NCBI GenBank assembly: GCA_021323675.1
Contig: JAJPKP010000087.1
Span: 10,654 to 74,653 of the forward strand
Reading direction: 5' to 3'
Length of the DNA: 64,000 nucleotides
Source: Pseudomonadota bacterium
GTDB taxonomy: Bacteria > Desulfobacterota > Binatia > Binatales > Binataceae
The position numbers and the translations under genes were made by a program. This document shows positions 8,156 through 60,192 of this stretch, piece by piece. The notes under the pieces were generated by a model. It searched no databases and was not told where the DNA came from. It saw nothing but the letters and a program-made list of their open reading frames with translations. The stretch's first letter is position 1. The number at the start of each line of letters is the position of its first letter.

Positions 8156-8246
8156 CGGCGAGTCTTTGCAGGCGCCAAACAGCCGGGGTTATACTCGCCC
8201 ATCGCCCGCGCCTGAGGTGCCGGGATGGCGACAGGAGAGTGAGCCG

Positions 8247-15078: not shown

Positions 15079-16809
15079 TCAGATGGGCATGCGATAGCCG
15101 TAGAATTCGTGATCCTCGTTGTAGCCGCCCTGGCCCTCGCCCAGATGGCGGAAGTCGCTTACGAACTCGATCGCTTCGATCCACTTCACCTGCTTGAAAC
15201 CGAGTTCGTTCTCGCATCGCAGCCGAAGCGGAGCGCCGTGAACGACCGTGAGCGGCTTTCCGTTCATCTCGTACGCGACGATCGTCAGGGAATGCCGCAT
15301 GTTGTCGATCGAGTGGACGTCGTAGTAGCGGCCTCCGTCGGCGCCGGGTGCAAATGAATAGAACACGGCATAGCGCGCTTCGGGAAGCGGCTTGACCGCC
15401 TCGACTATCTCGCGCATCGGCACCCCGCCCCACTTCGCGACCCCGGACCATCCCTGGATGCAAAAGTGCGCGGTGATTTGCTCCTGGCGGGTCATCGACT
15501 TGAGTTCGGCAAAGGTAAATTCCCGGGGCTTCTGGACCATCCCGTCCACGCGCAGGCGGTAACCCGCGAAGCCGGTCTTGACCAGCGACTCATAAGTCTC
15601 CGAATCCGGCATCGTCCCGTTCGGCCAGAAGAATGGTGAAATGTCCTTCTCCGAATATTGCGTCCTGACGTCCCACCATTCTCCGAACGCATCGAGCGGT
15701 CCGAGCAGGAAGCGCCCGGCCTTTTGCACGATCCGCGCATGCCTGATTGTGAACGGTGACGCGGCAAGCCACACCGCCGCCACCACCAGCATCGCCACCG
15801 CGAAAATTTCGAGGCCCAGCGGACTGTCGTTGTTGAGGCCGGCAAACATGTGATTGACGTTGTGGCGAAGGCCCGTAACGAACACCATCGTCACATGGAC
15901 GCAGACGAACATGATGAACCAGCACAGAATCAGAAAATGGATCGATCGCGCGGCCTGCCGATTGAACCTTCGCCCAAACCATCCGAGCTTGTTGGAGATC
16001 GCGGGCGCCTGCATCAGCCCGCTCACAATCGCAATCGGCGCCGCGATAAAGACCGTCATGAAGTAGGTCAGTTTCTGCAGGCTGTTGAAGTAAAGCCATC
16101 CGTCATTGGGCGGAAACCGCAGCGACAGATACTGGAGGATGGTCGAGAGAGCGTTGGGAAAAATCTCCCAGGACATCGGCACCAGCCGCTGGCATTGATG
16201 CGTGCTGAACAGCAGCACGTAAAAAATCACCCCGTTCACCACCCACAGCAGATCGAACGAGAAGTGCCACCATCGCGCCAGGCCAATCGTGTGCCTCATC
16301 CCGGGAATCCCGAGCCATCCCGGAAGAGTCACCGAGTCATCCTTGGCCGTCCACAGGCGGTCCCTGGGAACCTCGTGCTGAAAGCGGAACCATTCAGTGC
16401 CGGGCGTCGAATCGCGGTTCCAGTAAAGGCGCGGATGGTCGGCGAGAATCTGGATGCCGGCCCGGATGATGAGCATCATGAAAAGCAGGTTGAAAAAGTG
16501 CTGCCATCGCAACCACGCCGGGTATCCTGAATAATCGGCGGGCACTGAAGTGACGGTGCCGGGGTAGCGCGCGATAAATTCCTGCACCGCCGGAATTCGG
16601 CGCAGCTCCTGCCCAATCGCGATCCCGACGATCAGCATCAGCCCCGCGATCGGAATAAGCCAGAACACGTTGAACCATCGTTGGCCCACGCGGAAGTGCG
16701 GCATGGTTCCGTACCGCGGCGGCAGCCAGTGGCTCAGCCGTATTCGATCGTCCGCGTGAGTGAGCTCTCCTTCCAGAACATCCGTTGCAACGCAGCTTGT
16801 CTCGTTCAT
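15079..16809 (-). CDS. Fused membrane cytochrome-b-like domain and molybdopterin oxidoreductase (MsrQ/MsrP-like fusion)
   Basis: 576 aa. The N-terminal ~380 aa has multiple hydrophobic helices with conserved His (WQHFFNLLF, WWHFSFDLLW, SIHFLILCWFIMFVCVHVTMV). The C-terminal ~190 aa is a sulfite-oxidase-family Mo domain (ITAHFCIQGWSGVAKWGGVP, PLRLRCENELGFKQVKWIEAIEF). Confidence 0.7.
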   Translation of the reverse strand: MNETSCVATDVLEGELTHADDRIRLSHWLPPRYGTMPHFRVGQRWFNVFWLIPIAGLMLIVGIAIGQELRRIPAVQEFIARYPGTVTSVPADYSGYPAWLRWQHFFNLLFMMLIIRAGIQILADHPRLYWNRDSTPGTEWFRFQHEVPRDRLWTAKDDSVTLPGWLGIPGMRHTIGLARWWHFSFDLLWVVNGVIFYVLLFSTHQCQRLVPMSWEIFPNALSTILQYLSLRFPPNDGWLYFNSLQKLTYFMTVFIAAPIAIVSGLMQAPAISNKLGWFGRRFNRQAARSIHFLILCWFIMFVCVHVTMVFVTGLRHNVNHMFAGLNNDSPLGLEIFAVAMLVVAAVWLAASPFTIRHARIVQKAGRFLLGPLDAFGEWWDVRTQYSEKDISPFFWPNGTMPDSETYESLVKTGFAGYRLRVDGMVQKPREFTFAELKSMTRQEQITAHFCIQGWSGVAKWGGVPMREIVEAVKPLPEARYAVFYSFAPGADGGRYYDVHSIDNMRHSLTIVAYEMNGKPLTVVHGAPLRLRCENELGFKQVKWIEAIEFVSDFRHLGEGQGGYNEDHEFYGYRMPI

Positions 16810-24178: not shown

Positions 24179-25369
24179 TCACCTTTTTGTAAGCGACAGC
24201 CCCGAACGGGTACTGATGGAATTGGCCTCGACCGTCGCCGGCGCACGCAGGTAGATGCCTCCGAACGTGTTGGATATTGAATTGCTGCGAATGGTTATCG
24301 GGCCGCCGCACGGCTCGAAATGGATCCCGTTCGAGTTGCCGTTGGTGACACCCCCGATGTTGTAAATTGTGTTGCTTTCGACGGTTATGTTCGAACTCTG
24401 CTCCGAGTAGATGCCGTTGCCGTGCGGCGCATCGTGAGCGGTATTGCCGTGATACAGGATTCCTTCCGACATCTTGGTATCGATCCCATTGTGGTTCCAT
24501 TCACTTACGTCGTTGTTCAGAATCCTGATGTTAGTAGCCTGCTGAACGTTGATAGCGTTGTGTCCTCCCGCATAACTGACGCGATTACCTTCAACCGTCG
24601 GCGAAGTCGCATAGTTGATATAAATCGCATTGCAGTACCGGCCCGTGTCGATCAGATTGGTTCCGTTCTGCGTGACGATGTTGTCGCGGATCACGGATCC
24701 TACGTTTCTTGAGGGGTTTTGCGATATCATCGAAATCGCCCAGCAACCCGTCCGTGTGGTTCGTATATGGTCGATTACGATGTAGCTGCGGTTGTCGGCG
24801 GAAACTGCTTTGTCGCGAACCGCCGCCTCGACGATGTGATCCGTAGGATTCGACCCGTCGGCCAGCCTGACGAACAAATGGCTGCCGTCCCAGTACCACG
24901 TGCCGGGAGGCATTGAAGATAACGACCTCGACTCATTCAGGCCCCACCCGACAGCGTTGTCTATGTATACGTTGCCAGGGTTCTCGCTGAGCGGGGCTTT
25001 GTACACCGCGCCGGAGTATTGGACCCAGCCCCGGACAATATCCGCGCCACTGATTGTCGGCGGATCGCCGGAACCATACGCGGTGATCGTGATCGGCGCA
25101 TCCTCGGCGCCACTTCCATCGATCACAAGGGTCTCGCGCCACAGCGAGCCGCGCTCGAGGTAGACGACATCGCCAGGCTCGAGGACGGTCGAGTTGACCT
25201 TCCTCAGTGTCTTCCAGGGCGACGACGGCGATCTGCCGGAGTTCAAGTCACTGCCGGAATTGCCGACGTAAAACGCGCGGCCATACGCGGGTGCTGGAAA
25301 CCCCGCACAAACGCCAAGGAGCACAACCGCGACCAAGCACAATGCCGGGTTCCTCGATACGCGTCTCAT
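24179..25369 (-). CDS. Secreted right-handed parallel beta-helix repeat protein
   Basis: I prefer the ATG at 25369 (MRRVSRNPALCLVAVVLLGVCAGFPAPAYG signal). Repeated N-x-[IV]-x-x-N turns are seen (IRDNIVTQNG, VEGNRVSYAG, ILNNDVSEWN, VESNTIYNIG, IRSNSISNT). It is a clear paralog of the C-terminal part of 29352-31430. Confidence 0.75.
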   Translation of the reverse strand: MRRVSRNPALCLVAVVLLGVCAGFPAPAYGRAFYVGNSGSDLNSGRSPSSPWKTLRKVNSTVLEPGDVVYLERGSLWRETLVIDGSGAEDAPITITAYGSGDPPTISGADIVRGWVQYSGAVYKAPLSENPGNVYIDNAVGWGLNESRSLSSMPPGTWYWDGSHLFVRLADGSNPTDHIVEAAVRDKAVSADNRSYIVIDHIRTTRTGCWAISMISQNPSRNVGSVIRDNIVTQNGTNLIDTGRYCNAIYINYATSPTVEGNRVSYAGGHNAINVQQATNIRILNNDVSEWNHNGIDTKMSEGILYHGNTAHDAPHGNGIYSEQSSNITVESNTIYNIGGVTNGNSNGIHFEPCGGPITIRSNSISNTFGGIYLRAPATVEANSISTRSGLSLTKR

Positions 25370-25827
25370 CGTGGCCCCACACATAAACAGAATCTCTTCG
25401 AAGGGCTCATAAGTTTCTGAATCGAACATGTGAGGGCCTCAACCGCGGAGACAGGTAAGTCTCTCGCATTCGGCGTTCGTCTCACGCGACGCAAGCTTGA
25501 TGCCGCATGCTCCGGTGTCTCGTTTACTGCTGTTCCGCGGCGTCCACGCCGCAAATTGCACGACCTGAGTTCGGCGACGACGCTTTCGCTGAAGATGTGC
25601 TTTGTAAGATTGCGCCGTTTGCAGAGTCAGGATTTTCCGGGGCGGGATTAGCGGCAAAGCCATCGCTCGAATCCCCTGCTCGCGAATCACCGGTTAGGCC
25701 ATTTTTACAAACGAGCCTCAGGCAAACGCGATGAGTACGTTGTGATTCAAGCCGCGAATACGCTTCAGGACTGAACTGAACACTTTCTGAAGCGCCAACG
25801 GCCCGAAGGAAGCGAGGGGCATCCTAC

Positions 25828-27405
25828 TTGCTTCAGAAGCTGCTGGTCCCGCGGATTTCAGTGGCGCAAGCCGCGCGACGGGCTCAAGCAGTGCAATCAG
25901 GACGAGCATTATTCGACGATATCTCCACCGTCGAAGCCCGAAGTCAGATCCCGTCGCCTGTCCTTCCTGGCAGCATCGTCCTGGTAGCCCTCGCCCTTCT
26001 CGTGCTCTCAAATCCTCGAGGGCCGGTTACCCTCCTGCTTGCCGGATGCGTGGCGCTTGCGGCGCTGGTTGCCGCCGTCCTCTATACGCAGCGGCATCGA
26101 AGCTCGGTTATCACCATGATCCTGCTGGTCGAGATGCTGAGTTCGAGCTTCCTTTTCCCGCAGGGCGTGAATACTACTGCACGTTACGGCCTGGATTTTC
26201 TGTTCTGCGCCCCGCTTCTTCCGCTACTGCTGCGGCGTGGGATTCTCCGGAAGGGCGGGTTTCGCCTTCTTACGATCTATTTCGCGTGGTGCCTCTTCAC
26301 CGTGGCTTATTCTCTGGTTCCCGCCTATTCACTGGGAAGGGCATTGAGCTCGATGCTCCTGATCGCGAGCCTCGCGGTTCTCGCCTTCGATGTAACCGAT
26401 CAGGACGGTGTTGCCGATCTGCTGCGCAACTATCTGGTCGGCTGCGGCATCATCGTCGCCCTGGTCGCGTTCGCCGCACTTTTTCTGCCGCACAACATAA
26501 CATTCAGCTCAATCGAGATGCTCGATGCGAATGGGCGGCCGATTCCGGGCACTATCGACTATGCCTCGGGCGGCATATCAAGATTCGTCGGTATCTTCAC
26601 GCAGCCGAACGAGCTTGGTGCACTGGTGATCGTTACGATCGGCGCGGCGCTTGCCTACTGGAAGTTCGCATCGAAACGCGGCCGGCTGCTGCTGGCAGCG
26701 CTGATAGCAACGGCTGCCGCATTTGGAATCGCCGCCGATTCGCGATCGTCGATGGCGGCGTCGATGCTCGGAGTGCTTGCGTTTCTCGTCTGGAAATACA
26801 GATGGCGCGGGCTCCTGGCATGCGCGGCGGTGGCCGCGGCGCTGGTCCTGGCGATGGCCTTCACGGTTGGAGATCTCGACTCATACGTTTCCCGCGGCAA
26901 TGTCGCGTCGCTTACTGGAAGAACGGACGTGTGGAACTATGCAATGAATCAGGTGAAAGCGTCTCCGCTGCTTGGTTACGGTTACGAAGTCGAAGGACAG
27001 ATCTACCAGCTCAAATACTTTCCGCTGTGGTGGGGTCCCTGGGATGAAGGGCCGCGCAGCTCACTCCACAACGACTACCTGTCACACCTCGTGGGAGTCG
27101 GCGTGCCTGCCACCCTGTTCTGGCTTTTCATCATATTGCGCCCGTGGGCGAACCTGTTTCGACAAAAAGATGACCCGTGGGCGCTCAAGCCGATTTTTTT
27201 GCTAATCGTCCTGCCGCTTCTCATCCTCAACTGTGCGGAGAGCGGAGCGGGAGACTGCCACTACTCGACCGGCCTGCTGTTCATGCTGTGTTGGGCTCTT
27301 GCGGAGCGCGCTCGACTGCTCAGGAGTGAAAAGACAGCGCAAGACAACACATCGGCCAACACCGCGCCGACGCTGATCTCGGCAATCGCCGCGCTCGACC
27401 GTTGA
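25828..27405 (+). CDS. O-antigen ligase / polymerase-like (Wzy_C family) membrane protein
   Basis: 525 aa with many hydrophobic helices. It has a periplasmic-loop region with SRSSMAAS and a later HNDYLSHLVGVGVPA motif typical of O-antigen-ligase-like proteins. The TTG start is uncertain. Confidence 0.7.
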   Translation: MLQKLLVPRISVAQAARRAQAVQSGRALFDDISTVEARSQIPSPVLPGSIVLVALALLVLSNPRGPVTLLLAGCVALAALVAAVLYTQRHRSSVITMILLVEMLSSSFLFPQGVNTTARYGLDFLFCAPLLPLLLRRGILRKGGFRLLTIYFAWCLFTVAYSLVPAYSLGRALSSMLLIASLAVLAFDVTDQDGVADLLRNYLVGCGIIVALVAFAALFLPHNITFSSIEMLDANGRPIPGTIDYASGGISRFVGIFTQPNELGALVIVTIGAALAYWKFASKRGRLLLAALIATAAAFGIAADSRSSMAASMLGVLAFLVWKYRWRGLLACAAVAAALVLAMAFTVGDLDSYVSRGNVASLTGRTDVWNYAMNQVKASPLLGYGYEVEGQIYQLKYFPLWWGPWDEGPRSSLHNDYLSHLVGVGVPATLFWLFIILRPWANLFRQKDDPWALKPIFLLIVLPLLILNCAESGAGDCHYSTGLLFMLCWALAERARLLRSEKTAQDNTSANTAPTLISAIAALDR

Positions 27406-27574
27406 TGATCGCAGTTTGGCGAACCGCCCGTTACCATCACACGTTTTCCGATGAGCCTTTCGTTGCGGAAAGAATTACAAGCCGGCCGTTTCCAACGTCG
27501 CAGAACCCGCAAGTCTAAGCATCGTTTGTGGCGTCTAGCGCCGACCAGGCTGCCTCGCCTGGCAAGCACGCAAT

Positions 27575-28435
27575 TTGCACGCACCGGTTGCCGTGCTGAA
27601 AGAAGCGCTGGTAAGGCTCGGAGGATGGCGAGCGCCGATCTTCTTCGGAGGTGCAGGCGACTTCGACCGATGGCGATGGCTCGCGGCACACGCCGAAGCG
27701 GGGCCGATTCGCACCCTGGATGCCGGTTCGGGCCTCGGCGCGTTCTCGTTTCACGCAGCAAGGCACGGCAACGATGTCGTGGCTATCTCTTTCATCCCGG
27801 AGAACAACCAGAAAGCCCGGAGACGCGCGCAAATCCTGAGGTTCGATCGGATAACCTTTCTCGACGGCGACCTTCGCGACCTCGACCGGATGTCGGGCGG
27901 TCTGGGGATGTTCGATCAGATCTTCTGCGTCGAAGTAATCGAGCATCTCAAGGACGACGGAAAATTGCTGCGCGATCTTTCCGCGATGCTCAAGCCCGGG
28001 GGCAAGCTCCTTCTGTCCACTCCCTACGAGTTCCATCGCCGGCTGGTCGATGAACGCATCTCGGAGGTCGAAGATGGCGGGCACGTGCGTTTCGGCTACA
28101 CCATCGAAAAGCTCCGAGAAATGCTCAATTCCAACGACCTGGATATCATCCGGGAACAATTCATCACTGGCGCGGTCACGCAGCAGATCGACAACCTGAT
28201 GCGGCTCATCCGCAGATGGACGCCGAACGATCGCACTCTTTCATGGATAGCCACTTTCCCTCTGCGACTGTTCCAGATCTTCGACCGTCCTGTCACGGCG
28301 CTCACCGGATGGCCTCATCTCTCGATAGCCCTCGTCGCCGTGAAGCGAAACCCAGCGGGGCTTCGCCTTCCTGAGTACACGGACACGAGTTTCGCGGAGA
28401 GCCGAGATTCAACGGGAGCGGGCGGAGCCCGTTAA
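27575..28435 (+). CDS. Class I SAM-dependent methyltransferase
   Basis: Motif I is LDAGSGLGAFS. Post-I and motif II regions are seen (DVVAISF, FDQIFCVEVIEHL), as is KPGGKLLLSTP. The start (TTG 27575 or GTG 27593) is uncertain. Confidence 0.8.
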   Translation: MHAPVAVLKEALVRLGGWRAPIFFGGAGDFDRWRWLAAHAEAGPIRTLDAGSGLGAFSFHAARHGNDVVAISFIPENNQKARRRAQILRFDRITFLDGDLRDLDRMSGGLGMFDQIFCVEVIEHLKDDGKLLRDLSAMLKPGGKLLLSTPYEFHRRLVDERISEVEDGGHVRFGYTIEKLREMLNSNDLDIIREQFITGAVTQQIDNLMRLIRRWTPNDRTLSWIATFPLRLFQIFDRPVTALTGWPHLSIALVAVKRNPAGLRLPEYTDTSFAESRDSTGAGGAR

Positions 28436-28439
28436 ACGA

Positions 28440-29306
28440 ATGGCCAGGACGTCGAAATACCTTGCGATAACTCCGGCGCGCGACGAAGAGAAATTTCTGC
28501 CGGACATGATCGACTCGATGGTCTCGCAGACAATCCTGCCGGTCCGATGGATTATCATCGATGACGGTTCGGCCGACCGGACTCCCGATATCATCGATGA
28601 AGCCGCCGCCAGGTTTTCGTGGATCGTTCCCAGGCATCTGGCACGCACGCGGAGTCGCGAGCCTGGCGGCGAATCGGTAATCATGCGTTTCTTGCCGAGA
28701 GAAGAATGGCAGGACGTCGATTACATAGTTCGTTTCGACGCTGACTTGTTCTTCGTTCGAGACTATATCGAACGGCTCCTGAACGAGTTCGACCGCGATC
28801 CTTCCCTGGGCATCGTGAGCGGCTGCCTGATCGAGCCTTCGCACGGCGAATGGCGTCTGAATGCGATTCCGTCATTCCATACTCGCGGTCCGAGCAAAAT
28901 CTATTCGCGGGCCTGTTTTGAGGCGATTGGAGGACTCGAGCCGGGCGAAGGCTGGGATACGATCGACGAAGTAAAGGCGATGATGCGAGGTTTTCGGACG
29001 CGCAATTTCCGCAATATCACCGCCTTTCATCGAAGGACCACCGGCAGCGCCCGAGGATTGTGGCGCACCCGTTTCGGGCAGGGGCGCATCGCCCACTTTG
29101 TTGGCTATTCGCAGCTCTTTACGCTGGCGCGCGCCGCCGGCCTGCTCTTCTCCGAGCCTTTCATAGGCGGGTCGGTGATGCTCCTTCTGGGGTTCTATTC
29201 AGGCTACGTTTGGCGCCGGCCGAGATTTCCAGATCCTCAAGTAATGAAGTTCATCCGCAGACAGCAGTTTCGACGGCTGACCTTCAGAGAATCGGTCTGG
29301 CAGTAG
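28440..29306 (+). CDS. Family 2 glycosyltransferase
   Basis: The N-terminal GT-A region is LAITPARDEEKFLPDMIDSMVSQT..WIIIDDGSADRT. A D-x-D-like FDADL and C-terminal hydrophobic helices are present. It starts 5 nt after the methyltransferase stop. Confidence 0.8.
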   Translation: MARTSKYLAITPARDEEKFLPDMIDSMVSQTILPVRWIIIDDGSADRTPDIIDEAAARFSWIVPRHLARTRSREPGGESVIMRFLPREEWQDVDYIVRFDADLFFVRDYIERLLNEFDRDPSLGIVSGCLIEPSHGEWRLNAIPSFHTRGPSKIYSRACFEAIGGLEPGEGWDTIDEVKAMMRGFRTRNFRNITAFHRRTTGSARGLWRTRFGQGRIAHFVGYSQLFTLARAAGLLFSEPFIGGSVMLLLGFYSGYVWRRPRFPDPQVMKFIRRQQFRRLTFRESVWQ

Positions 29307-29351
29307 CTCGCTGCGAACATCGACGGAGACCGGCGAGGTTATTTTGAGACA

Positions 29352-31430
29352 GTGGTGCGGTTTAGGCCTGCCGGTTTCCTTCTCTTTCTGACTTTTGCGG
29401 CGCTTGTGTTCGCCGCGCCGGCACTCGCCGACGATATCGCAATCGTCTCACCCCTGGGAAACGCCCTGGTCTCCGGCAAGGTCAAGGTTGTCTCTCGCGG
29501 AAAGCCGCCGAACTCCACCCGTGTGAGCTTCTATGTCGACGGCCACGAGTTCGCCACGGCGCCGGCCCGAAAACATCTCGCGAGGAAATGGGATTCCGGG
29601 ACCGTGGCTGCCGGTCTCCATTCGTTGAGCGCCATCGCGTTCGATTCAGCGGACCAGGTCACCGGCAGTTCGCAGGAAAACGTATTCGTCGGGACCGGGG
29701 TGGTTATTTCCTCACCGGCAAATGACGCGACCGTTTCGGGATCGTTCAACGTGATTTGCCAGGTGGCGTCGGGGGCTCGATCGGCGATTCTCTACATCGA
29801 TGGAACCAAACGCGCGGAGGGACCGCCATATGTCTTTGCTCTCTCCGCCGAAACGATCGGAAACGGTTCGCATACGATCACGGTTGAGGCGATCGGGCGA
29901 AACCATACCAGCATGGGATCGGCTTCCATCAGGGTCAACGTGACGCAGCCGGCGCCAACGCCGACTTCAGCTCCCACTTCGAAGGCAACCCGGACACCCA
30001 TTGCGATTTCGACGGCAAGTCCGCTACCCCATCCGCCGCCTTCCTTGACTCAGACTCCGGTTCCCGGAGCGCACGCCTACTATGTCGATCCTTCCGGCAG
30101 CGACGCCGCCGCCGGAACGTCGCCATCCACTGCCTGGCGTACCCTGTCCCGCGTAAACTCGGCATCCCTGGTTCCGGGCGACGTCGTATACCTCAAACGC
30201 GGCGGCTTCTGGCGCGAGGCATTGATTCCGAGCGCCAGCGGCACATCCGGCGCGCCGATCGTTTTCACCGCGTTCGGAACGGGCAACCTTCCGATTATTT
30301 CCGGCGCGGATGCCGTCAAAACATGGACCAACTATGCAGGCGCCATCTTCCGGGCCGCACTCGGCACCTCGCCGGCCAACGTCTATGTTGACCGCGCCTC
30401 CGGTTGGGGCCTTCTCCATGCGGGGTCGCCATCCGCGATGCCGGCGGGATCATGGTATTGGTCAAATGGATTTCTTTATGTGCGCCTTTCTGACGGTTCC
30501 GATCTCAATACTCACTTCATCGAAGCCGCGGTGCGTCGGGAAGGCGTGTACGCTACTAATCGAAGTTACATAACGATTGATCATCTGGCGGTCGAACGAA
30601 CGGCGGGATGGGGTATCGAATTAATGTCCGAGAGCAACCAGAGCCAGACCACAGGCGTCATCGTTAGCAACAATCTTGTTACGCAGAATGGAACCGGTGA
30701 GGTGGATACGGGCGGCTATTTCAACGCAATCTACATCAATCGCGCGGTCTCGCCGGTGGTAGAGGGCAACACGGTAAGCTATGCAGGCGGACATAACGGA
30801 ATAAATGTTCAGTATGCGACCAACGGCAAGATTCTTGACAACAACGTCAGGCACTTCAACCACAGCGGCATCGACGTCAAATGGTGCGATCGGATGCTGA
30901 TCGCGGGCAATGCCGTTCACGATTCCAGGCATGTGTCGATCTATTCGCAGAGTTCTTCCAATATCACCATCGAGGATAACATCGTCTTCAACATCACCGG
31001 CACCGCTTGTGGCAGCGCGGATGGTATCCATGTCGAGAGAATGGCGGGCGGCCAGAACGTGATCTTCAACAATTCCATCTACAACGCCTACTGCGGAATC
31101 TATCTCCTCTCACCGGCTGCGGTGATGAACAATGCCCTGAATGCGATCGGCTCCGGTTACGGGCTAAGGGCGGTCTCCGGCGGCACCTACGACTACAACG
31201 ATCTGGGCCAGAACGCGTGGGTCGAGCTGGACAGCAAGCAGTATCGTTTCTCAGCCTGGCGGGCGTTGGGCGGTCATTCGCACGACATCGCGGCGGATCC
31301 GATGTGGACCGCACCTGCCACCGGCGACATGTCCCTCCGATCGGGCTCACCCTGCATCCACGCCGGAACCGACGTCGGTCTCCCATACGCAGGCCCCGCC
31401 CCCGATATGGGCGCAGTGGACTCGCAATAG
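29352..31430 (+). CDS. Secreted protein: two Ig-like repeats, Pro/Thr linker, parallel beta-helix domain
   Basis: Signal peptide is FLLFLTFAALVFAAPALA. Two similar ~90-aa repeats are present (SPLGNALVSGKVKVV.. and SSPANDATVSGSFNVI..). A linker PAPTPTSAPTSKATRTP follows. The beta-helix region aligns by eye with 24179-25369, for example PGDVVYLKRGGFWRE vs PGDVVYLERGSLWRE and VEGNTVSYAGGHNGINVQ vs VEGNRVSYAGGHNAINVQ. Confidence 0.75.
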   Translation: MVRFRPAGFLLFLTFAALVFAAPALADDIAIVSPLGNALVSGKVKVVSRGKPPNSTRVSFYVDGHEFATAPARKHLARKWDSGTVAAGLHSLSAIAFDSADQVTGSSQENVFVGTGVVISSPANDATVSGSFNVICQVASGARSAILYIDGTKRAEGPPYVFALSAETIGNGSHTITVEAIGRNHTSMGSASIRVNVTQPAPTPTSAPTSKATRTPIAISTASPLPHPPPSLTQTPVPGAHAYYVDPSGSDAAAGTSPSTAWRTLSRVNSASLVPGDVVYLKRGGFWREALIPSASGTSGAPIVFTAFGTGNLPIISGADAVKTWTNYAGAIFRAALGTSPANVYVDRASGWGLLHAGSPSAMPAGSWYWSNGFLYVRLSDGSDLNTHFIEAAVRREGVYATNRSYITIDHLAVERTAGWGIELMSESNQSQTTGVIVSNNLVTQNGTGEVDTGGYFNAIYINRAVSPVVEGNTVSYAGGHNGINVQYATNGKILDNNVRHFNHSGIDVKWCDRMLIAGNAVHDSRHVSIYSQSSSNITIEDNIVFNITGTACGSADGIHVERMAGGQNVIFNNSIYNAYCGIYLLSPAAVMNNALNAIGSGYGLRAVSGGTYDYNDLGQNAWVELDSKQYRFSAWRALGGHSHDIAADPMWTAPATGDMSLRSGSPCIHAGTDVGLPYAGPAPDMGAVDSQ

Positions 31431-53720: not shown

Positions 53721-54524
53721 TCAGTTGGCCAGCGCGGTGCCGAGCTGCTGGGTCTTTTCGCGCAGGATGCTCACGAGCTTGTCATAGCCCTGCTCGTTGA
53801 TTACGCGATTGAACTGGTTGCGGTAGTTCGCGATAACGCTGATCGAATCCACATCGATATCGTAGATTTTCCAGTCTCCGCCGACGTCTTTCATCAGGTA
53901 GCTGACCTGGAGCGGATTCGGCCGGCTTTGCAGCGTCACGGTGCTGAAAACCTCGGCGCTATCGCCGTCAACGCGCTCGTTGTTGAAGACAATTACCGAA
54001 GTCTTGATGTCCTGCTGCACCTTCTCGACCGAGTACTTTTCGATCTGCGACAGGGCGACGTCTTCGATAAAGCTGGTGAAAAGGGGAACGAACTCCTGGC
54101 GCTGGTCCGGGGTGAGGGCGCGCCAATGGTAGCCGACGGCCGATCGCGCCATCCCCTCGAAATCGAAATTGGCCTCGGCGATAGTGCGCAGCTTCTGCCG
54201 CCGCGCCTGCGCACTGATATCGCGATCCTGGAAAACCGCGATCGCCTGATCCATCACTCCCTTGACGGTCTTCATCGGGTCGTGGGGAGGTGGAGCATCA
54301 GCGTGCAGCGGAGCGGCCGCATACAGCATCGCAACAACCGCGATGGCCGCTCCGAGCAGAGCCAAATAGAGAATTATCGCGGCGCGGCGCGACGAAATTC
54401 GGGGTGTTGGGGGCGTCGTCCGCTTCGGCACCAGCGCAAGCGGCGGCCTGCGCGCAGGCGCCATTCGCGGCCTGGGCCTCGGTTTATGTCCAGTGGGGCC
54501 GATTCTTCTGCCTTCGGTTTTCAT
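53721..54524 (-). CDS. MlaC/Ttg2D-like phospholipid-binding protein
   Basis: The C-terminal ~200 aa match the toluene-tolerance Ttg2D/MlaC family by eye (ANFDFEGMARSAVGYHWRALTPDQRQEF, DWKIYDIDVDSISVIANYRNQF). I prefer the ATG at 54524 because the longer track ORF would run through the terminator at 54604-54662. Confidence 0.7.
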   Translation of the reverse strand: MKTEGRRIGPTGHKPRPRPRMAPARRPPLALVPKRTTPPTPRISSRRAAIILYLALLGAAIAVVAMLYAAAPLHADAPPPHDPMKTVKGVMDQAIAVFQDRDISAQARRQKLRTIAEANFDFEGMARSAVGYHWRALTPDQRQEFVPLFTSFIEDVALSQIEKYSVEKVQQDIKTSVIVFNNERVDGDSAEVFSTVTLQSRPNPLQVSYLMKDVGGDWKIYDIDVDSISVIANYRNQFNRVINEQGYDKLVSILREKTQQLGTALAN

Positions 54525-54603
54525 GACTGAAACTACGGCGCACTGCAGCACGGGCTGCTGCGTTGCATATGAAGATTCTAGCCGAATATCGCACGCGATT
54601 GGA

Positions 54604-54662
54604 TCAAAAAAGAACCCCGCTCCTCCGGTCACGCCGCTGGCGCGCACCCGAGGAGCGGGGGT
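54604..54662 (-). terminator. Intrinsic terminator downstream of the 1028-aa thaumatin-like gene
   Basis: The minus strand reads CCCCGCTCCTC (24-nt loop) GAGGAGCGGGG TTCTTTTTT. The 11-bp GC-rich stem lies at plus-strand coordinates 54615-54625 / 54650-54660, followed by a U-tract. Confidence 0.55.
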
Positions 54663-54686: not shown

Positions 54687-57600
54687 TCAGTTGGCCGGAT
54701 TCGAGTTTATCTGGAACGATCCGAACGTGATGTCGTAGTTCATCGTGTTCGAGACGCTCGAGCTGGTTCCCGCCGAAGCGCACGTGAACGTGCTGGTCGC
54801 ATCGTCAAACGGGAAGCTGTAAGCCGTCGGACACGCATCCTTCAGATAATGCAGCCAGGGCAGGACGTCGTTTTGCCAGGCTGTGCTCGAATCTGTGCAA
54901 TTCGTGAACGACGACCCGAGAATCGTCGGCCAGTCGGACGCGACGCCGGTGGCCGTCGGGCATCCGCAGCAGAACGAATTGGCCGCCGCGGTGTTGTAGC
55001 AGGACGTCGCGCTTCCGACCGCGTTGCCGTTGCATCCGAACATGTTGGCAATCGTATCGGGAGTGCCGCTCGGCGGGCTTTGCGCGGTCGCGGTGCAATC
55101 GACCGGTCCGTACTTCTGCCCTGCCTGGCCGCAGAAATCGTCATAGGTCCAGAGGCCGCCGGTCGCACTTCCGCAGGTCTGCAGCAGATTGCCGCCGACC
55201 AGTCCCGTGCCGCAGGTGGCTCCGAATGCGGAACTGCTGCAATCGGTCGCCGAGGAGCAGGAATCGACGCAGGTGCCGCTTCCGCTGCACGCCATTCCGC
55301 TCGGGCACGAGACATTGCCGTCGCATCCCAAAGGCTGGCATTGGCCGGTAGTGGTGTTGCAGGTTCCCGAGACGGAAGAGCAATCCGAATCCGCCGTACA
55401 CGGAGACGTGCAATAGCTGCCCGCGCTGCAGGATTGCCCGTTGGGGCAGGTTCCCGAATTCGGGCATGCGAGCGGCCCGGGTACGCAATATCCGCCAGCG
55501 CCGCACAGGCTGTTCAGCGGGCAGGAGCCATCCACCGGGCACTGCAATTGAGCGACGCAGGTTCCAGTCGCCATCCCCGACGGGATGTCGCAGACCTGGT
55601 GAGAGTTCGGGCAGGGCTGAGTCGCGGAACAACTCGCCTGGCTCGATACGCAGGTCCCGAATTGTTGCCCGTTCGGGATATTGCAACTAAAGCCGGCCGG
55701 ACACGTGACGGTCGCATCGCAGGTCAAAGGCGTACATGTGCCGTTCTGGCAGGTTGCGGACTCCAGGCCGGTGGCGGCGCTGGAGCAATCACTGTCGGTA
55801 GTGCAGGTGTCGGGAAGGCATAGTCCCTGGACGCAGGATGGCGCGGTGTTGGGACACTGGCTCGACGACGTGCATTGCGTGGTCGGAGCGCAGAATCCAT
55901 TGACGCACGGCAGGCTGCCGGGACAATCGCTCGAAGTCGTACATGCGGGCTGATTGGGAATGCAAGTGTAGGTAGTGGCCTTGGTGGTCGGATCGACACC
56001 GGTCGGTTGGCAAGCCGATCCCGCCGGGCATCCGGCGCTGTTGGGATTGCACGACGGCAGGCTTACCTGCGTCAGCAGCGAGGTTTCATCGCCAAAGGTC
56101 GGGACGCTGGCGAGGTTGAAATTCCACGAGCATGCGCTCAGGCCCCCGCCGGATGCGGGCTGCGCGGACGTGCTTCCCGCGGTCTCGCACTGGTAGGCAG
56201 TGGTGCCCGGCGATGGCGAGGCGGTGGATGAAGGATCGGGACCCATCTGCACCGCGACGTTCGCGCCGTTAATCACGCTGACGTCATAGAAGTCCACCGC
56301 GTTCGCTGAGAGCGTGAATTCGGCGAGAGTATCGGGCGGGAGTCCTCCGCCGCCAACCGGACATCCCTGGTATGCGGAATTTCCGCAATCGCCCGTCTGG
56401 CACATCGTGCCGTCCGATTGGCATCCGGTCCGCGCAAAGCTGTTGCCGCTCCATCCGATGATCGGGAAGCAGGTGCAGGTCTGTCCCTCCTGAGCCTGGG
56501 AGCAATCGGTCGCGGTGGGCGGAACATGCGGTGCAAAGGGGCCACTGGTCCCGCTAATTACGCATCGGCCGCTCGCGCATTGGGAATCCTCGGTGCACAA
56601 GGTGCTCGTGTTGGTAATCTTTCCGGGGCCAGCCCAGAACGATCCCGGCGCCACTCCACCCGGCAAACAGAGTACCGTGGTGGAACTCTCCGACAACTCC
56701 AGATCGTTTTGAGGGATGGTCGAAGACGAGTACTGGCAGAGGCCCATGTTGGTGTCGCAGGTCTGGCCGCTGATAGTGCAATCGGAGTCGCTCTGACACG
56801 CCTGCGTCTCGCCCGGATGAACCGGAGCGAAGAAACACGAACCGCCGGTGCATTCGGACACCTGGTTAGTCCACGTGCACGATGTGCTCGATCCGCAGTT
56901 GGCGGCCGTGCTGCAGGAGGTGTTGTTCTGCAGGCTTGAGACCGTGGTGGTGCAAAGACCGGTGGTCGTGTCGCAGGTAAAGTTGGTATCGCACTGGCTA
57001 TTGGAGGTGCATGCCGCCCCGAGTCTGCCTACGCACTCGTTCTGGCTCAGCGTGACCGTAGTTGACTGTGCGCCGCCGGCGCATACGGTGCTCGGAGCCT
57101 CCATACAAACGCCGGTATTCGTGTCGCATTGGTTCGCATCCGCGCACTGCGTGAAACTCGTGCAGGCGCTGGTGGCGACGCAGGTTTGATTGGGGCCGCA
57201 ACTGTTGTCATTTGACACCGCGCACGCAACCGGCGGCGGTCCGCCGCCCGTCACCAGCCCGAGCCAAACCGTATTCGAAGTGGTGTTCGTGTACTTGAAG
57301 GTGCGAAATCCCGTTGGACAGGTCGGCAGAGATGTCGTCGATGGCACCACTACGAATCCGAGTGATGTCGTCGAGCCTCCTGTTGTATGGCTGAGGTTGA
57401 CATGGTCGCCGACTCCGGCGCACACCGCCAGCGAAAAGCTGCCGTCCGGATGGACGCTCGCTGACCCACTCGCCGAGCACCCGGATGATCCCGCCGCGAC
57501 CGCGTTGGCTTGTCTGAAACCGGCGCTCGAGGAGCTCGAACCACTCACAGTTCCGCCGCCCGGTGCCACACCGGGAGCGCCCAGGATTGCGACGACCCCG

Positions 57601-57773
57601 TTTATCGGGGCCTGCACTTGAACATTCGCAATCGGAGTCGCCGTGGGCGTCGGGGTGGGGGTGGGAGTGTTCTTATGCCCTCCGGAGGAGCTTGAACTAC
57701 CGCCGCAGGCGCTGAGAAGCAACAACAGGCCAGTAAGGAACAGCGAGGACCAAGCAGCAAGCCTACGAGCCAT
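54687..57773 (-). CDS. Giant cysteine-rich lipoprotein with a split thaumatin-like (PR-5/osmotin family) domain
   Basis: 1028 aa; RBS AGGAGA. Lipoprotein signal is LLLLLSAC, followed by linker TPTPTPTPTATP. Thaumatin blocks are FKYTNTTSNTVW (aa 159-170), ARTGCQSDGTMCQTGDCG..PPDTLAEFTL..DFYDVSVINGANVAVQM (aa 447-510), SCYNTAAANSFCCGCP, and LKDACPTAYSFPFDDATSTFTC..NYDITF (aa 977-1016). Two long Cys-rich insertions lie between the blocks. Confidence 0.85.
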   Translation of the reverse strand: MARRLAAWSSLFLTGLLLLLSACGGSSSSSGGHKNTPTPTPTPTATPIANVQVQAPINGVVAILGAPGVAPGGGTVSGSSSSSAGFRQANAVAAGSSGCSASGSASVHPDGSFSLAVCAGVGDHVNLSHTTGGSTTSLGFVVVPSTTSLPTCPTGFRTFKYTNTTSNTVWLGLVTGGGPPPVACAVSNDNSCGPNQTCVATSACTSFTQCADANQCDTNTGVCMEAPSTVCAGGAQSTTVTLSQNECVGRLGAACTSNSQCDTNFTCDTTTGLCTTTVSSLQNNTSCSTAANCGSSTSCTWTNQVSECTGGSCFFAPVHPGETQACQSDSDCTISGQTCDTNMGLCQYSSSTIPQNDLELSESSTTVLCLPGGVAPGSFWAGPGKITNTSTLCTEDSQCASGRCVISGTSGPFAPHVPPTATDCSQAQEGQTCTCFPIIGWSGNSFARTGCQSDGTMCQTGDCGNSAYQGCPVGGGGLPPDTLAEFTLSANAVDFYDVSVINGANVAVQMGPDPSSTASPSPGTTAYQCETAGSTSAQPASGGGLSACSWNFNLASVPTFGDETSLLTQVSLPSCNPNSAGCPAGSACQPTGVDPTTKATTYTCIPNQPACTTSSDCPGSLPCVNGFCAPTTQCTSSSQCPNTAPSCVQGLCLPDTCTTDSDCSSAATGLESATCQNGTCTPLTCDATVTCPAGFSCNIPNGQQFGTCVSSQASCSATQPCPNSHQVCDIPSGMATGTCVAQLQCPVDGSCPLNSLCGAGGYCVPGPLACPNSGTCPNGQSCSAGSYCTSPCTADSDCSSVSGTCNTTTGQCQPLGCDGNVSCPSGMACSGSGTCVDSCSSATDCSSSAFGATCGTGLVGGNLLQTCGSATGGLWTYDDFCGQAGQKYGPVDCTATAQSPPSGTPDTIANMFGCNGNAVGSATSCYNTAAANSFCCGCPTATGVASDWPTILGSSFTNCTDSSTAWQNDVLPWLHYLKDACPTAYSFPFDDATSTFTCASAGTSSSVSNTMNYDITFGSFQINSNPAN

Positions 57774-57890
57774 AGTCTCCTACACCTTGCGCCCGCGAAG
57801 TGTTTCGGAAGTTGCACGCGGCGGCAAAATCATCACGATCGCGGGTGCGTGAGACCTGGCCGACGGCTCGGAGTTCATATCACACCTTGG

Positions 57891-57923
57891 CGCACAATAC
57901 AGCCGAGATTGTGCGATTATCAA
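57891..57923 (-). promoter_or_regulatory. Candidate promoter with overlapping inverted repeat upstream of the 1028-aa thaumatin-like gene
   Basis: The minus strand reads TTGATA (57923-57918), an 18-nt spacer, then TATTGT (57899-57894). A perfect inverted repeat CGCACAAT-N9-ATTGTGCG (57891-57915) overlaps the spacer and the -10. The region is conspicuously AT-rich (aaaaattaattgataat). Confidence 0.3.
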
Positions 57924-58029
57924 TTAATTTTTGTTGTTTCGGTGTCTGAACAAAGCTCAGCACTTGTTTCCATCTGCCGTTTCCTATCATTGCCACATAC
58001 CGAATGCCTTCACCGCCATCCTTCGACGT

Positions 58030-60192
58030 CTACTCTGAAGCCGGCACGGGCAGGCTCGTGAAATCAATCTGGTACCCGAGCATATTGACCGCTCCCTGCG
58101 CCTGGCACTGGAAGGTGCTGGTGAAGTCGTCGTAGGCGTAGGTGTAGGCGCTCGGGCAGGCTTCTTTCAGATTCGCCAGCCATGGCTGAACGTCGGCAGC
58201 CCAGGTGGTGTTGTTGCTGGCGCACGATCCGGTAGCTGCGGGCCACAGCGTGGAAAGCGGATTGGCGGCATCCGTCGCGCATCCGCAACATCCCGTCGTC
58301 GGGTCGGCGTTGGCGTTGTAGCATGACTGCTCGTTGGCAGGATTTCCGGCCTGGGCGGCGCTGGATGCGCCGTTGCAGCCGAGCAGACTCGCGAGGTTGG
58401 TCTTCGTGCTGTCGCCGTCGATGATGCCGGCGCCGCAATTCAAGGCGGGGCTGCCGGGTGACCCTATAAGGTTGTTGGCGTTGGCGCAGAAGTCGTCCGC
58501 TGTCCACCATCCCTCGAAACTTCCGCACTGGCGCAGATAGACCTGCGGCGATAGCGTCGCGCTGCCGAGGCCCGGAACAAGTTGGCTTCCGCAGAACTGC
58601 CCGGCTGGGCAATCGCTCTGCGCGCTGCACTGGCAGTAGGAGTTGCCATCGCCGGCCTGCAGGCAGTGCAATCCGCTCGGACATTGAGTGTCGGAAGAGC
58701 AGGTCTTGTAGCAGACCCCATTCAGAGCCTTGGCATTGCCCGAGCACGAATAGGCGACCCCGGCAGGATCGGCAAATAGCGGACATCCGGTCGGCGCCTG
58801 TCCCGCGGGCGGGTTCCCGGTGCCGACGGCGCACGGCTTGGCAATCAGCATCAACAGAGTGGTGTAGTCGGTGGTTTGCGTAGCCGAAGGAATGGGAACG
58901 CTTTTGGTGTATTGGCCGAAGTCGAAATTGCAATCGCCGCCCGGCGTCGCACACCAGTAAGCAGGATCGACGCCGTTCGGGGTTTGAGTCGCGGTCGGAA
59001 TTGGACCCATCTGCTCTCCGATATTGGCGCCATTGATCACGGTGATGTCGTAAAAGTCCGTGGCACTTCTTTGCAGGGTAAATTCCGCGATAGTCGCGGG
59101 CTGAGCGCCGCCCACGCCAACCGGACAATCCGCGTTCGGAACCGGTTTTCCACCGTTTGACGAGACGGAAGTGTTGCAATCGCCGGTGAGGCAACTGGTG
59201 CCGTCGGCCTGGCAACCGGTTCGAGCGCCCAGGCCTCCGCTCCACCACACCGCGGAAGGAATCGCCGTCGAAGACGGCGCCGCGCCGGGCGACGGAGCCG
59301 GCTGATATGTCACGTTCGCTTCGGTGAGACAGAAATTGACGGCGGCGGCGTTGGTCGGCAGTTCCCAATTCCACGGATCGTCGGGAGTGAAATCGAGAAA
59401 CTCAGTCGGCGATGGAAGCGTGAAATAGCAAAGATTGGTGGCGAGATTGCACCCCGCGCCCGGTCCGCAATCCGAATCCTGCTGGCATTGGCAGTTGAGG
59501 CCCGCCGACTTGGGCCCGATTGGATTGGAAATGCCGGGGCACGCCAGCGATCCGATGCTGGTGCCGCATTGGCATGATCCCGTCGCGGCATTGATCGTGC
59601 TCGCGGCGGCCAGGCAGCTTGAGGCGCCGTTGTTGACCACGCACACCGAGCGCAAGGCGCCGCCCCCGCCCGAAACCCACAATGCCTGCGAAGTGCTGTT
59701 GGAGACCAGCAGCTGGCGCTCGTTCGCGGCGCACGGATTGCCCGTAAAGGTGCTGGGCGCAGCCGTCGAAGAGACTGTCACATCTCCCAGCACCGAAGAT
59801 TGGCCGCTCGAATCCTCGAAATCGACCTCGACCTGGTTGCCGATCGAGCCGCAGACCGACACCGAGAAACTGCCGTCAGCGTTGGTAGCGACACTTGCCA
59901 TGCGGGTGCAAGAAGATGCTTCCGCAGCCTTTAGCTCGGTCGCCGAAGAAGACCCCGAGGCCGATTCATCAGCCGCAGTGATTATTCCCTCGCCAGGTGC
60001 GACGCCTGCGCTGCCGATAACAGTGACGAATCCGAGGGCGTTGGGACTGGTCACCGTGATTGAGGCAGTGGGCGTGGCGGTTGGAGTCGCGGTAGGTGAC
60101 TTTCCGGTTCCGGAGGAATTTGACCCGCCACACGCGCTTAAGAACGTCAGCAGGCTTGCTGAAATTGCCAGCAGCCCCAAGCGACGCATCAT
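58030..60192 (-). CDS. Cysteine-rich lipoprotein with a split thaumatin-like (PR-5/osmotin family) domain, paralog of 54687-57773
   Basis: 720 aa. Lipoprotein signal is LLTFLSAC, followed by linker TATPTATPTA. Thaumatin blocks are LLVSNSTSQALW, ARTGCQADGTSCLTGDC..ATIAEFTL..DFYDITVINGANIGEQM (aa 323-395), SCYNANADPTTGCCGC, and LKEACPSAYTYAYDDFTSTFQC (aa 675-696). Confidence 0.85.
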   Translation of the reverse strand: MMRRLGLLAISASLLTFLSACGGSNSSGTGKSPTATPTATPTASITVTSPNALGFVTVIGSAGVAPGEGIITAADESASGSSSATELKAAEASSCTRMASVATNADGSFSVSVCGSIGNQVEVDFEDSSGQSSVLGDVTVSSTAAPSTFTGNPCAANERQLLVSNSTSQALWVSGGGGALRSVCVVNNGASSCLAAASTINAATGSCQCGTSIGSLACPGISNPIGPKSAGLNCQCQQDSDCGPGAGCNLATNLCYFTLPSPTEFLDFTPDDPWNWELPTNAAAVNFCLTEANVTYQPAPSPGAAPSSTAIPSAVWWSGGLGARTGCQADGTSCLTGDCNTSVSSNGGKPVPNADCPVGVGGAQPATIAEFTLQRSATDFYDITVINGANIGEQMGPIPTATQTPNGVDPAYWCATPGGDCNFDFGQYTKSVPIPSATQTTDYTTLLMLIAKPCAVGTGNPPAGQAPTGCPLFADPAGVAYSCSGNAKALNGVCYKTCSSDTQCPSGLHCLQAGDGNSYCQCSAQSDCPAGQFCGSQLVPGLGSATLSPQVYLRQCGSFEGWWTADDFCANANNLIGSPGSPALNCGAGIIDGDSTKTNLASLLGCNGASSAAQAGNPANEQSCYNANADPTTGCCGCATDAANPLSTLWPAATGSCASNNTTWAADVQPWLANLKEACPSAYTYAYDDFTSTFQCQAQGAVNMLGYQIDFTSLPVPASE

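Follow-up and report, generated by a model that had tools for sequence, protein, structure and literature searches.

Much enlarged thaumatin-family proteins with lipoprotein signals are encoded by two adjacent genes of a Binataceae bacterium

Evaluation of a 64,000-nucleotide stretch of the Binataceae contig JAJPKP010000087.1 (in the following, the window) showed that two adjacent genes of this uncultured soil bacterium, A and B, encode native bacterial, lipobox-bearing, and much enlarged members of the thaumatin/PR-5 family. This reading is supported by matches to a profile hidden Markov model (HMM), a fold match, the mapping of hallmark residues, and the gene context. The original prediction, made from the letters of the window, had described two same-strand open reading frames (ORFs) of 1028 and 720 amino acids (aa), each beginning with a lipoprotein signal (LLSAC or FLSAC) and carrying the thaumatin blocks in canonical order. 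Both ORFs were recovered where expected, on the minus strand:

54687..57773, minus strand: gene A, ORF for a 1028-aa thaumatin-family lipoprotein precursor
58030..60192, minus strand: gene B, ORF for a 720-aa thaumatin-family lipoprotein precursor

The mature proteins were computed to have ~99 kDa, a pI of ~4.05, and 93 Cys in the case of A and ~70 kDa, a pI of ~4.05, and 43 Cys in the case of B, with a composition dominated by S, T, G, A, C, and P. LLSAC starts at aa 19 of A and FLSAC at aa 17 of B, and every quoted block was located in A, namely ARTGCQSDGTMCQTGDCG (aa 447), PPDTLAEFTL (aa 479), DFYDVSVINGANVAVQM (aa 494), FCCGCP (aa 934), LKDACPTAYSFPFDDATSTFTC (aa 977), and NYDITF (aa 1012). 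Orthologs of A are 950-1318 aa long. The anticipated split hit to the Pfam model PF00314 was likewise obtained for both proteins. At a gathering score of 27.4 bits (whole-protein HMM score), A reached 65.7 bits (E 6e-18) and B 36.6 bits (E 4.9e-9), each in two stretches separated by the second of two large insertions (insert 2). A sequence search of the PDB with A retrieved zeamatin (E 9e-15) as well as PR-5d, osmotin, and thaumatin, and the search with B gave weaker, split matches to thaumatin-family proteins. Judged by HMM score and fold, the membership of A and B in this family is at the very least close to certain.

The fold comparison was performed with an AlphaFold2 (AF2) model of B, which was built from a 27-sequence alignment and reached a predicted local distance difference test score (pLDDT) of 70.3 and a predicted TM-score (pTM) of 0.70. 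The best Foldseek match was Mal d 2 (3zs3; probability 1.0, E 3.6e-6), with a target-normalised TM-score of 0.59 and an alignment over 557 columns. It was followed by 7p22 as second best, and thaumatin and Jun a 3 were also matched, the best matches all being thaumatin folds. The proposed check against thaumatin-fold crystal structures therefore succeeded for B but not for A, whose own model could not be used. The thaumatin fold of A is instead predicted from its homology to B and to PDB sequences.

For the residue comparison, osmotin served as a ruler (the sequence used equals PDB 1pcv across all 205 residues) for 25 diverse bacterial sequences including A and B. The osmotin cysteines C51/C61/C66/C72 correspond to C327/C334/C339/C356 in B and C451/C458/C463/C471 in A, C175 corresponds to B C679 and A C981, and C192 to B C696 and A C998. 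In the cleft, E84 is equivalent to B E370 and A E485, D97 to B D382 and A D497, D185 to B D689 and A D991, and R48 to B R324 and A R448; the E84, D97, and D185 equivalents are invariant in 25/25 sequences. The signature core C-x-T-G-D-C is kept as CQTGDC in A and CLTGDC in B. A longer PROSITE-type signature, which we take to read G-x-[GF]-x-C-x-T-[GA]-D-C-x(1,2)-[GQ]-x(2,3)-C, matches osmotin and none of A, B, and 23 diverse bacterial homologs. As MAFFT spreads osmotin over the insert modules in domain II (osmotin 105-165), secure assignments are given for the flanking cysteines only. These are six (C51, C61, C66, C72, C175, and C192) of the 16 canonical ones, with four to six further cysteines being plausible in domain II, where the alignment is unreliable. 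The mapping of canonical cysteines and cleft residues suggested beforehand thus held for these six, the Glu, both Asp, and R48, but not for the terminal C9-C204 pair, which is gone, nor for two cleft positions, D102 and R44, which are replaced. Neither C9 nor C204 is found in A, in B, or in the proteins of Myxococcus and Bdellovibrio. Among 23 sequences spanning both sites, the pair is kept in nine (from Legionella, Coxiellaceae, Thermoanaerobaculia, Polyangiaceae, Lysobacteraceae, Campylobacterales, and Nannocystaceae) and lost in 14, with a single cysteine never being found. This all-or-none pattern is the covariation that a genuine disulfide within a common fold should produce. The 16 conserved cysteines (8 disulfides) of typical large thaumatin-like proteins (TLPs), a set that A and B do not display in full, are reduced to 10 Cys in small TLPs (PMC3048497), and 6 disulfides are present in a TLP of a rust fungus (PMC13148976), so that the family tolerates cysteine loss.

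The original prediction had further regarded the locus as native, flanked by MlaC-like and LysR genes, and named a chimeric contig as the finding that would speak against it. Both flanks are as described, and eukaryotic contamination or an assembly chimera was rejected with next to no residual doubt. GC content is even along the window, bacterial housekeeping genes lie on both sides, and the genes carry lipobox signals, Shine-Dalgarno (SD) sites, and an intrinsic terminator. Synteny is found in relatives, and an identical B protein in the same LysR-B-A order occurs on 16 contigs from independent assemblies, which argues against a chimeric locus. No point in support of contamination or a chimera was found.

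Export of both proteins is indicated by their N-termini, MARR...LLLLSAC in A (Cys23) and MMRR...TFLSAC in B (Cys21). Both satisfy the lipoprotein pattern, defined as a positive n-region, a hydrophobic h-region, and a lipobox of the form [LVI][ASTVI][GAS]C. The lipobox reads IAAC, VSAC, LSAC, or INAC in close orthologs of A and LSAC, LSSC, ISGC, or VSAC in those of B. Homologs from Bdellovibrio, Deltaproteobacteria CG11, Pseudomonadales, and Campylobacterales as well as Neisseria-like ones are lipoproteins by pattern too, and more distant family members carry a plain signal peptide with no lipobox. Going by these motifs, A and B are probably lipid-anchored and may be exposed at the cell surface.

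The anatomy of B, from its N-terminus to its C-terminus, is as follows:

60130..60192, minus strand: signal peptide with lipobox L-S-A-C (Cys21), B aa 1-21, MMRRLGLLAISASLLTFLSAC followed by GG
59743..60129, minus strand: Pro/Thr-rich linker (aa 22-44), then a beta-rich domain of ~100 aa, B aa 22-150
59653..59742, minus strand: first thaumatin beta-strands RQLLVSNSTSQALWVSGGGG, B aa 151-180, aligned to osmotin 1-14
59260..59652, minus strand: insert 1, B aa 181-311, ~131-150 aa with 11 Cys (osmotin 32 aa)
58993..59259, minus strand: thaumatin core, B aa 312-400, with WWSGGLGARTGC, the four domain-III cysteines, IAEFTL, and DFYDITVINGAN, from PDB and Pfam alignments
58513..58992, minus strand: insert 2, B aa 401-560, including two four-cysteine modules (498-520 and 522-556)
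58033..58512, minus strand: C-terminal thaumatin part, B aa 561-720, WWTADDFC ... CCGC ... CPSAYTYAYDDFTSTFQC ... YQIDF

The N-terminal beta-rich domain, with DSSP strands at 45-139 and a pLDDT of only 30-60, gave a sub-threshold Pfam match to Big_6 (E 0.056) and weak Foldseek matches to CGTase domains; with low confidence, we consider it to be immunoglobulin-like (Ig-like). In the first-strand segment, the canonical Cys9 position is a Thr. Insert 1 is confidently folded in the AF2 model (pLDDT 80-91). The two modules of insert 2, with C-x5-C-x5-C spacing and a pLDDT of 90-95, are modeled as hairpins, and this region also matches the NCBIfam model of the Legionella protein LegT. No other part of the family is conserved as widely as the C-terminal thaumatin module of ~185 aa. 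Within gene B, a 436-aa ORF in another frame of the minus strand (58064-59374) recurs in 11 loci. As the recurrence is accounted for by conservation of the thaumatin gene itself in GC-rich DNA, this ORF is a gene-caller trap and no gene. Two further observations concern B-type homologs. Six of them with 763-801 aa (P0033, P0035, P0037, P0040, P0041, and P0045) have lipobox and Ig-like domain swapped out for an N-terminal cysteine-rich domain of ~230 aa and a long Pro/Thr/Ser linker; the thaumatin module is combined with varied N-terminal parts. In another (P0049, 859 aa), an extra PF16075 domain and a long stretch within insert 2 that is not Cys-rich were found, so that this position tolerates whole-domain insertions.

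Protein A follows the same plan with larger inserts:

57705..57773, minus strand: signal peptide with lipobox L-S-A-C (Cys23), A aa 1-23, MARRLAAWSSLFLTGLLLLLSAC followed by GG
57324..57704, minus strand: Pro/Thr linker and N-terminal beta-rich domain, A aa 24-150, homologous to that of B
56460..57323, minus strand: first thaumatin strands FRTFKYTNTTSNTVWLG, then insert 1, A aa 151-438
56235..56459, minus strand: thaumatin core, A aa 439-513, from Pfam and PDB alignments
55164..56234, minus strand: insert 2, A aa 514-870, with 10-11 tandem four-cysteine modules at aa 575-867
54690..55163, minus strand: C-terminal thaumatin part, A aa 871-1028, WTYDDFC ... FCCGC ... CPTAYSFPFDDATSTFTC ... NYDITF

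Residues 1-188 of A and B share 37% identity, and strands are predicted at 51-142 of A in its low-confidence AF2 model. Insert 1 of A comprises ~275 aa with 29 Cys in about six four-cysteine modules, and the modules of A are spaced as C-x5-C-x5/6-C-x4-10-C. The lengths of the two inserts across the family are as follows:

First strand to ARTGC: osmotin 32 aa; Legionella type 86; Bdellovibrio 98; B-type 131-150 (11 Cys); A-type 180-275 (19-29 Cys); Myxococcus 251 (29 Cys)
INGAN to YDD: osmotin 75 aa (9 Cys); Legionella type ~210 (15 Cys); Bdellovibrio ~240 (17 Cys); B-type ~295 (23 Cys); A-type ~480 (49-55 Cys); Myxococcus 23 Cys

Pfam searches with the isolated inserts and N-terminal domains returned only sub-threshold DUF7107, Dumpy-DPY, and Big_6, the first two being matches of insert 2 of A. 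Cysteines are conserved to 95-100% in orthologs (95-96% in insert 2 of A) versus 62-70% identity at other residues, which indicates that the inserts are folded, disulfide-locked parts and not junk. A tandem repeat on DNA level was not found in the module array of A, and the array is consequently considered to be old. The C-x5-C spacing and the CT.S.DC motifs of this array could also be read as an ice-binding, antifreeze-type beta-helix, and antifreeze activity has been reported in some TLPs (PMC3048497). Yet the PDB sequence search with the array found an insignificant LDL-receptor repeat (E 0.26) and no antifreeze protein, and AF2 renders the modules of B as hairpins and not as a helix, making this interpretation highly improbable.

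Compared with plant PR-5 TLPs (osmotin 1pcv, zeamatin 1du5, PR-5d 1aun, and Mal d 2 3zs3), A and B show the same fold and block order and the same secreted, disulfide-rich character, with 30-35% of residues identical across the 329 alignment columns they share. Both retain the four domain-III cysteines together with C175, C192, E84, D97, and D185. In contrast to the ~205 aa of plant TLPs, the mature proteins have 700-1006 aa, and only they contain a lipobox, a Pro/Thr linker, an extra N-terminal domain, and two nested Cys-rich inserts (32 aa extended to 149-275 aa and 75 aa to ~295-480 aa); they also deviate at C9-C204, D102, and R44. A described bacterial counterpart with enlarged architecture is LegT (Legionella pneumophila lpg1328), listed as a "Thaumatin domain" Dot/Icm substrate (PMC2824747), for which no biochemical function was found described in the literature. 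The corresponding NCBIfam model, NF045527, has 776 positions and requires 1200 bits of an equivalog. LegT and B have the enlarged thaumatin region in common (B 506-711 corresponds to model positions 552-759), every long-type bacterial homolog tested aligns to positions ~336-772 of the model without reaching the 1200-bit threshold, and the clade-wide INGxN/AEFT/YDD pattern is shared by LegT, A, and B. Orthology to LegT was rejected, as B reached 68.6 bits against the cut-off of 1200 and A had no match at E<=1; homologs from Legionella metagenome-assembled genomes (MAGs) themselves scored only 198-215 bits. Legionella-type proteins differ from A and B by a retained C9-C204 pair, shorter inserts (86 and ~210 aa), and a plain signal peptide. 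The nearest relatives of A from cultured organisms are 750-770-aa proteins of Myxococcus, Corallococcus, and Pyxidicoccus (L025, L027-L029, L031, and L033), whose insert 2 is B-sized (23 Cys) without the array of 10-11 modules, whose N-terminal regions differ from that of A, and whose gene neighborhood (glutamine synthetase, amino-acid permease) is unrelated. A solved bacterial structure, 7p22 (a TLP of Amycolatopsis rifamycinica), has a thaumatin fold like the B model but comprises ~220 residues without inserts. Sequence searches with A, with B, and with the family profile all failed to retrieve it, and it is thus further from both proteins in sequence than plant TLPs. GH152 glucanases (Lentinula TLG1 and whitefly Bta13961) and basidiomycete TLPs belong to the same Pfam family and provide a precedent for glucanase activity in the cleft and for in-domain insertions, ~280 vs 215 aa (PMC11800479, PMC3048497). 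They keep the REDDD motif and contain small insertions only, in contrast to the altered motif and large inserts of A and B.

Beyond identity, fold, export signals, and conservation pattern, which the data above establish, our leading functional proposal, tentative and with slightly less than an even chance of being correct, is that A and B are exported, disulfide-locked proteins whose cleft binds, and possibly cuts, a polysaccharide of the beta-glucan type. Following Sec export, the mature proteins would start at a lipid-modified Cys, continued by a flexible Pro/Thr linker, a small beta-rich (Ig-like) domain, and the thaumatin fold with its two inserts. About 20 disulfides in B and 45 in A would lock these strongly acidic proteins, numbers that point to a function outside the cytoplasm, with a tether to a membrane of the diderm host. 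The cleft with its invariant Glu, Asp, and Asp may bind a polysaccharide, most plausibly a beta-1,3- or mixed-linkage glucan, and by analogy to PR-5/GH152 proteins it may hydrolyse this glucan, the putative catalytic acids not being assignable with confidence. Inserts and Ig-like domain could act as rigid spacers or auxiliary binding surfaces holding the cleft off the membrane. Glucan is the best-guess ligand because the thaumatin cleft of PR-5/GH152 proteins is tied to glucan binding and glucanase activity (PMC3048497, PMC11800479, PMC8267864).

Several observations weigh against this proposal. Asn takes the place of D102 in 24/25 sequences (N387 in B, N502 in A). At the position of R44, which we take to be the Arg of the REDDD motif, B has Gly and A has Asn; the cleft of both proteins is, by alignment, not a canonical REDDD cleft. 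The AF2 model of A is unusable (pLDDT 40), and in the model of B the confidence is <50 at the YAYDD segment (residues 684-691). Within the long bacterial clade, no member has a demonstrated ligand or activity, and neither a glycoside hydrolase nor a sugar transporter nor any other recurrent partner adjoins the genes at 83 loci. For thaumatin-fold proteins in general, several other activities have been reported (PMC3048497), and plant TLPs with substituted REDDD aspartates exist (PMC11598614).

The altered motif and the lack of carbohydrate-metabolism neighbors at the 83 loci also fit a possible, albeit doubtful, role as non-enzymatic surface adhesins or structural envelope proteins, in which fold and modules would form a rigid, protease-resistant scaffold with no glucan ligand. 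Most of the mass lies outside the thaumatin core (inserts, linker, and Ig-like domain), the 10-11 modules of A are stalk-like, and the composition dominated by S, T, G, A, C, and P is in line with such a role. On the other hand, Glu, Asp, Asp, and the clade-specific Asn are invariant across phyla, which is more constraint than a scaffold needs, and it is the thaumatin C-terminal module rather than the repeats that is most conserved in the family. The conservation of the cleft residues also bears on an assignment as inhibitors of foreign enzymes, comparable with the wheat xylanase-inhibitor TLPs. Some proteins of this fold are reported to act in this way, but the xylanase inhibitors are small-type TLPs without the cleft (PMC3048497), whereas here the cleft residues are the most conserved ones, so that we regard this role as very unlikely.

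Extension of the analysis to the spread of the family, as the original prediction had asked for in the form of a homolog census, showed that the enlarged architecture is a character of the clade and no peculiarity of the window. A profile of the B family, searched against 1.84 billion representatives, retrieved 1527 clusters (at 50% identity) at E<=1e-3, 733 at E<=1e-10, and 229 at E<=1e-30. Most of the strong matches have 400-800 aa and share the C-terminal module of ~185 residues. A scan of one genome per prokaryotic species yielded 142 relatives with Binataceae first, followed by Myxococcus, Corallococcus, Pyxidicoccus, Polyangiaceae, Nannocystaceae, Bdellovibrio, Legionella, Coxiellaceae, Thermoanaerobaculia, Lysobacteraceae, Burkholderiales, Neisseriales, Campylobacterales, Doudnabacteria, and Dadabacteria; as the scan was seeded with Binataceae motifs and limited to 80 loci, this list of taxa is biased. 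Considering this seeding and limit, the seemingly high share of predatory and protist-associated bacteria is taken as a hint and not as established. The same enrichment (Myxococcota, Bdellovibrio, Legionellales, and Lysobacteraceae) would be in line with A and B being osmotin-like toxins permeabilising the membranes of fungal or other eukaryotic targets, and many plant PR-5 proteins are antifungal (PMC3048497). A lipid anchor, however, would hold the protein on its producer, the pI of A and B is ~4 while osmotin is described as basic (PMC8267864), and the biased taxon list applies here as well; we consider a toxin function quite unlikely.

Regarding novelty, the bacterial versions had been called uncharacterised, which stands, but they are recognised already by NCBI names, the LegT model, and 7p22. 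Close orthologs bear the NCBI label "thaumatin family protein [Candidatus Binataceae bacterium]", and A and B are thus correctly labeled in public annotation, with no new category being opened. Our literature search retrieved no paper on bacterial long-type thaumatin proteins, nothing relevant linking thaumatin with Binatota, Myxococcus, or Amycolatopsis, and no 7p22 paper, and a 2026 review of the thaumatin-like family does not use the word "prokaryote". The literature treats TLPs as plant, fungal, and animal proteins. The bacterial branch follows rules of its own, with a 2-5x larger domain, nested cysteine-module inserts, Asn for D102, an optional terminal disulfide, and frequent lipid anchoring by pattern. 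Its members come from Binatota, Myxococcota, Bdellovibrionota, Pseudomonadota, Acidobacteriota, and further lineages, the Legionella effector LegT being one of them. As cultured Myxococcus and Corallococcus carry orthologs of protein A, its function is directly testable. A broader idea, conceivable though doubtful, is that the long-type bacterial thaumatins (LegT, those of Myxococcus, Bdellovibrio, and Lysobacteraceae, and the Binataceae pair) form an undescribed class of extracellular, cleft-bearing proteins with which bacteria take hold of, or cut, the glucan walls of fungi, oomycetes, algae, or amoebal cysts. If so, the lipid-anchored pair would mark uncultured Binataceae as physically engaging eukaryotic microbes.

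Three family members deserve mention in their own right. Two larger proteins share the long-type thaumatin region, one of 1902 aa (L063:1606-7311, Gammaproteobacteria MAG OFTM317) and one of 2542 aa (P0205), so that A does not mark the size limit of the family. A 502-aa protein of Nannocystaceae bacterium ST9 (L059:5524-7032) is the only one of 23 genome-scan homologs with a plant-type cleft. It combines Arg at the R44 site with Asp at the D102 site (IDGFN in place of INGxN) and a kept C9-C204 pair and may link canonical and long bacterial types.

The relationship between A and B themselves is distant. They can be aligned in three collinear pieces only (36-39% identity), and residues 151-619 of A, including the 29-Cys insert 1, share 41-43% identity with the Myxococcus/Corallococcus proteins. 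Over the 329 shared columns, A is 52% identical to the Myxococcus type and 45% to B, and a neighbor-joining tree without support values places the A-type clade as sister to the Myxococcus clade with the B-type clade apart. By these comparisons, A and B are best described as anciently diverged paralogs that are adjacent in one sub-lineage only. A recent tandem duplication was rejected, as the Myxococcus proteins are closer to A than B is. DNA-level repeats were not found. Of the earlier description as tandemly duplicated, the adjacency of paralogs is retained but not a recent duplication.

In an independent contig (L001), the B-A pair is found with the same downstream genes at 66-70% identity. 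Two further loci (L009 and L018) carry a B-type gene alone upstream of MlaC, the former, a Binataceae MAG contig, with the same thaumatin-MlaC-Def-ABC-ABC2-GldG block and flanking proteins that are 62-89% identical. Together with the NCBI names of close homologs, this block places the window in the Binataceae, phylum Binatota. Other Binataceae homologs reside in unrelated gene contexts. In the window, one flank consists of MlaC, peptide deformylase, an ABC transporter with ABC-2 permease, and a GldG-like gene, and the other of a LysR regulator and a luciferase-like monooxygenase. The following signals were recognized around the two genes:

57774..58029, minus strand: spacer between B and A, 256 nt, with one weak sigma-70-like site at 57894-57923
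54606..54660, minus strand: intrinsic terminator directly past gene A, an 11-bp GC-rich outer stem plus inner stem

Both genes are preceded by SD-like sequences, AAGGGAG 7 nt ahead of the ATG of B and AGGAG 5 nt ahead of that of A. No terminator hairpin was detected in the spacer (fold z-score 0.0). The structure past A is followed by the U-run UUCUUUUUU and has a minimum free energy of -42.1 kcal/mol (z -4.88, with 0/200 shuffles as good); a consensus terminator scan had missed it because of its long loop. Together with the SD sequences and the B-A pair and synteny conserved in an independent assembly, this terminator argues for A and B being real genes. Its strength rules out co-transcription of A and B with MlaC. 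The 308-aa MlaC ORF beginning at GTG 54647 crosses the terminator and is over-extended (54524-54647), the real start probably being ATG 54524, giving ~267 aa (the ortholog in L001 is called at 265 aa).

This context bears on a possible function in envelope homeostasis instead of an interaction with other organisms, with A and B binding the producer's own periplasmic or capsular glucan or another envelope polysaccharide. The Gly at +2 could keep a lipoprotein periplasmic, the locus adjoins envelope genes (MlaC, ABC-2 transporter, and GldG-like) in several Binataceae, and a surface-glycan cluster lies elsewhere in the window. Separation of A from MlaC by the strong terminator, and an adjacency confined to close relatives with other Binataceae homologs in unrelated contexts, speak against such a role, which we rate as unlikely. 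ORF clustering across the 83 loci revealed short-chain dehydrogenases as the sole recurrent non-self family; their positions vary and their recurrence is taken as chance, and the remaining clusters are alternative-frame ORFs inside the thaumatin genes. No conserved gene neighbors support any pathway, and Rfam and tRNA scans returned nothing near the A/B locus.

The rest of the window hosts SerRS, GatA/GatB, PGI, transaldolase, G6PD, Pst/PhoU, and tRNA-Arg. In the surface-glycan-type cluster at 24179-31430, a 416-aa protein is of the right-handed beta-helix kind, a 525-aa membrane protein is Wzy_C/O-antigen-ligase-like, and Big_7 and beta-helix/NosD domains occur in a protein of 692 aa. On the minus strand, a 395-aa ORF at 12456-13643 has no Pfam match at E<=1e-5, and a 749-aa ORF at 6474-8723, with a luciferase-like monooxygenase domain at residues 395-657 only, may be over-extended or a fusion with an unassigned N-terminal half. 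A 576-aa ORF at 15079-16809, also on the minus strand, fuses a cytochrome b561-type membrane domain with a molybdopterin oxidoreductase domain, two parts that are usually separate genes (MsrQ/MsrP-like).

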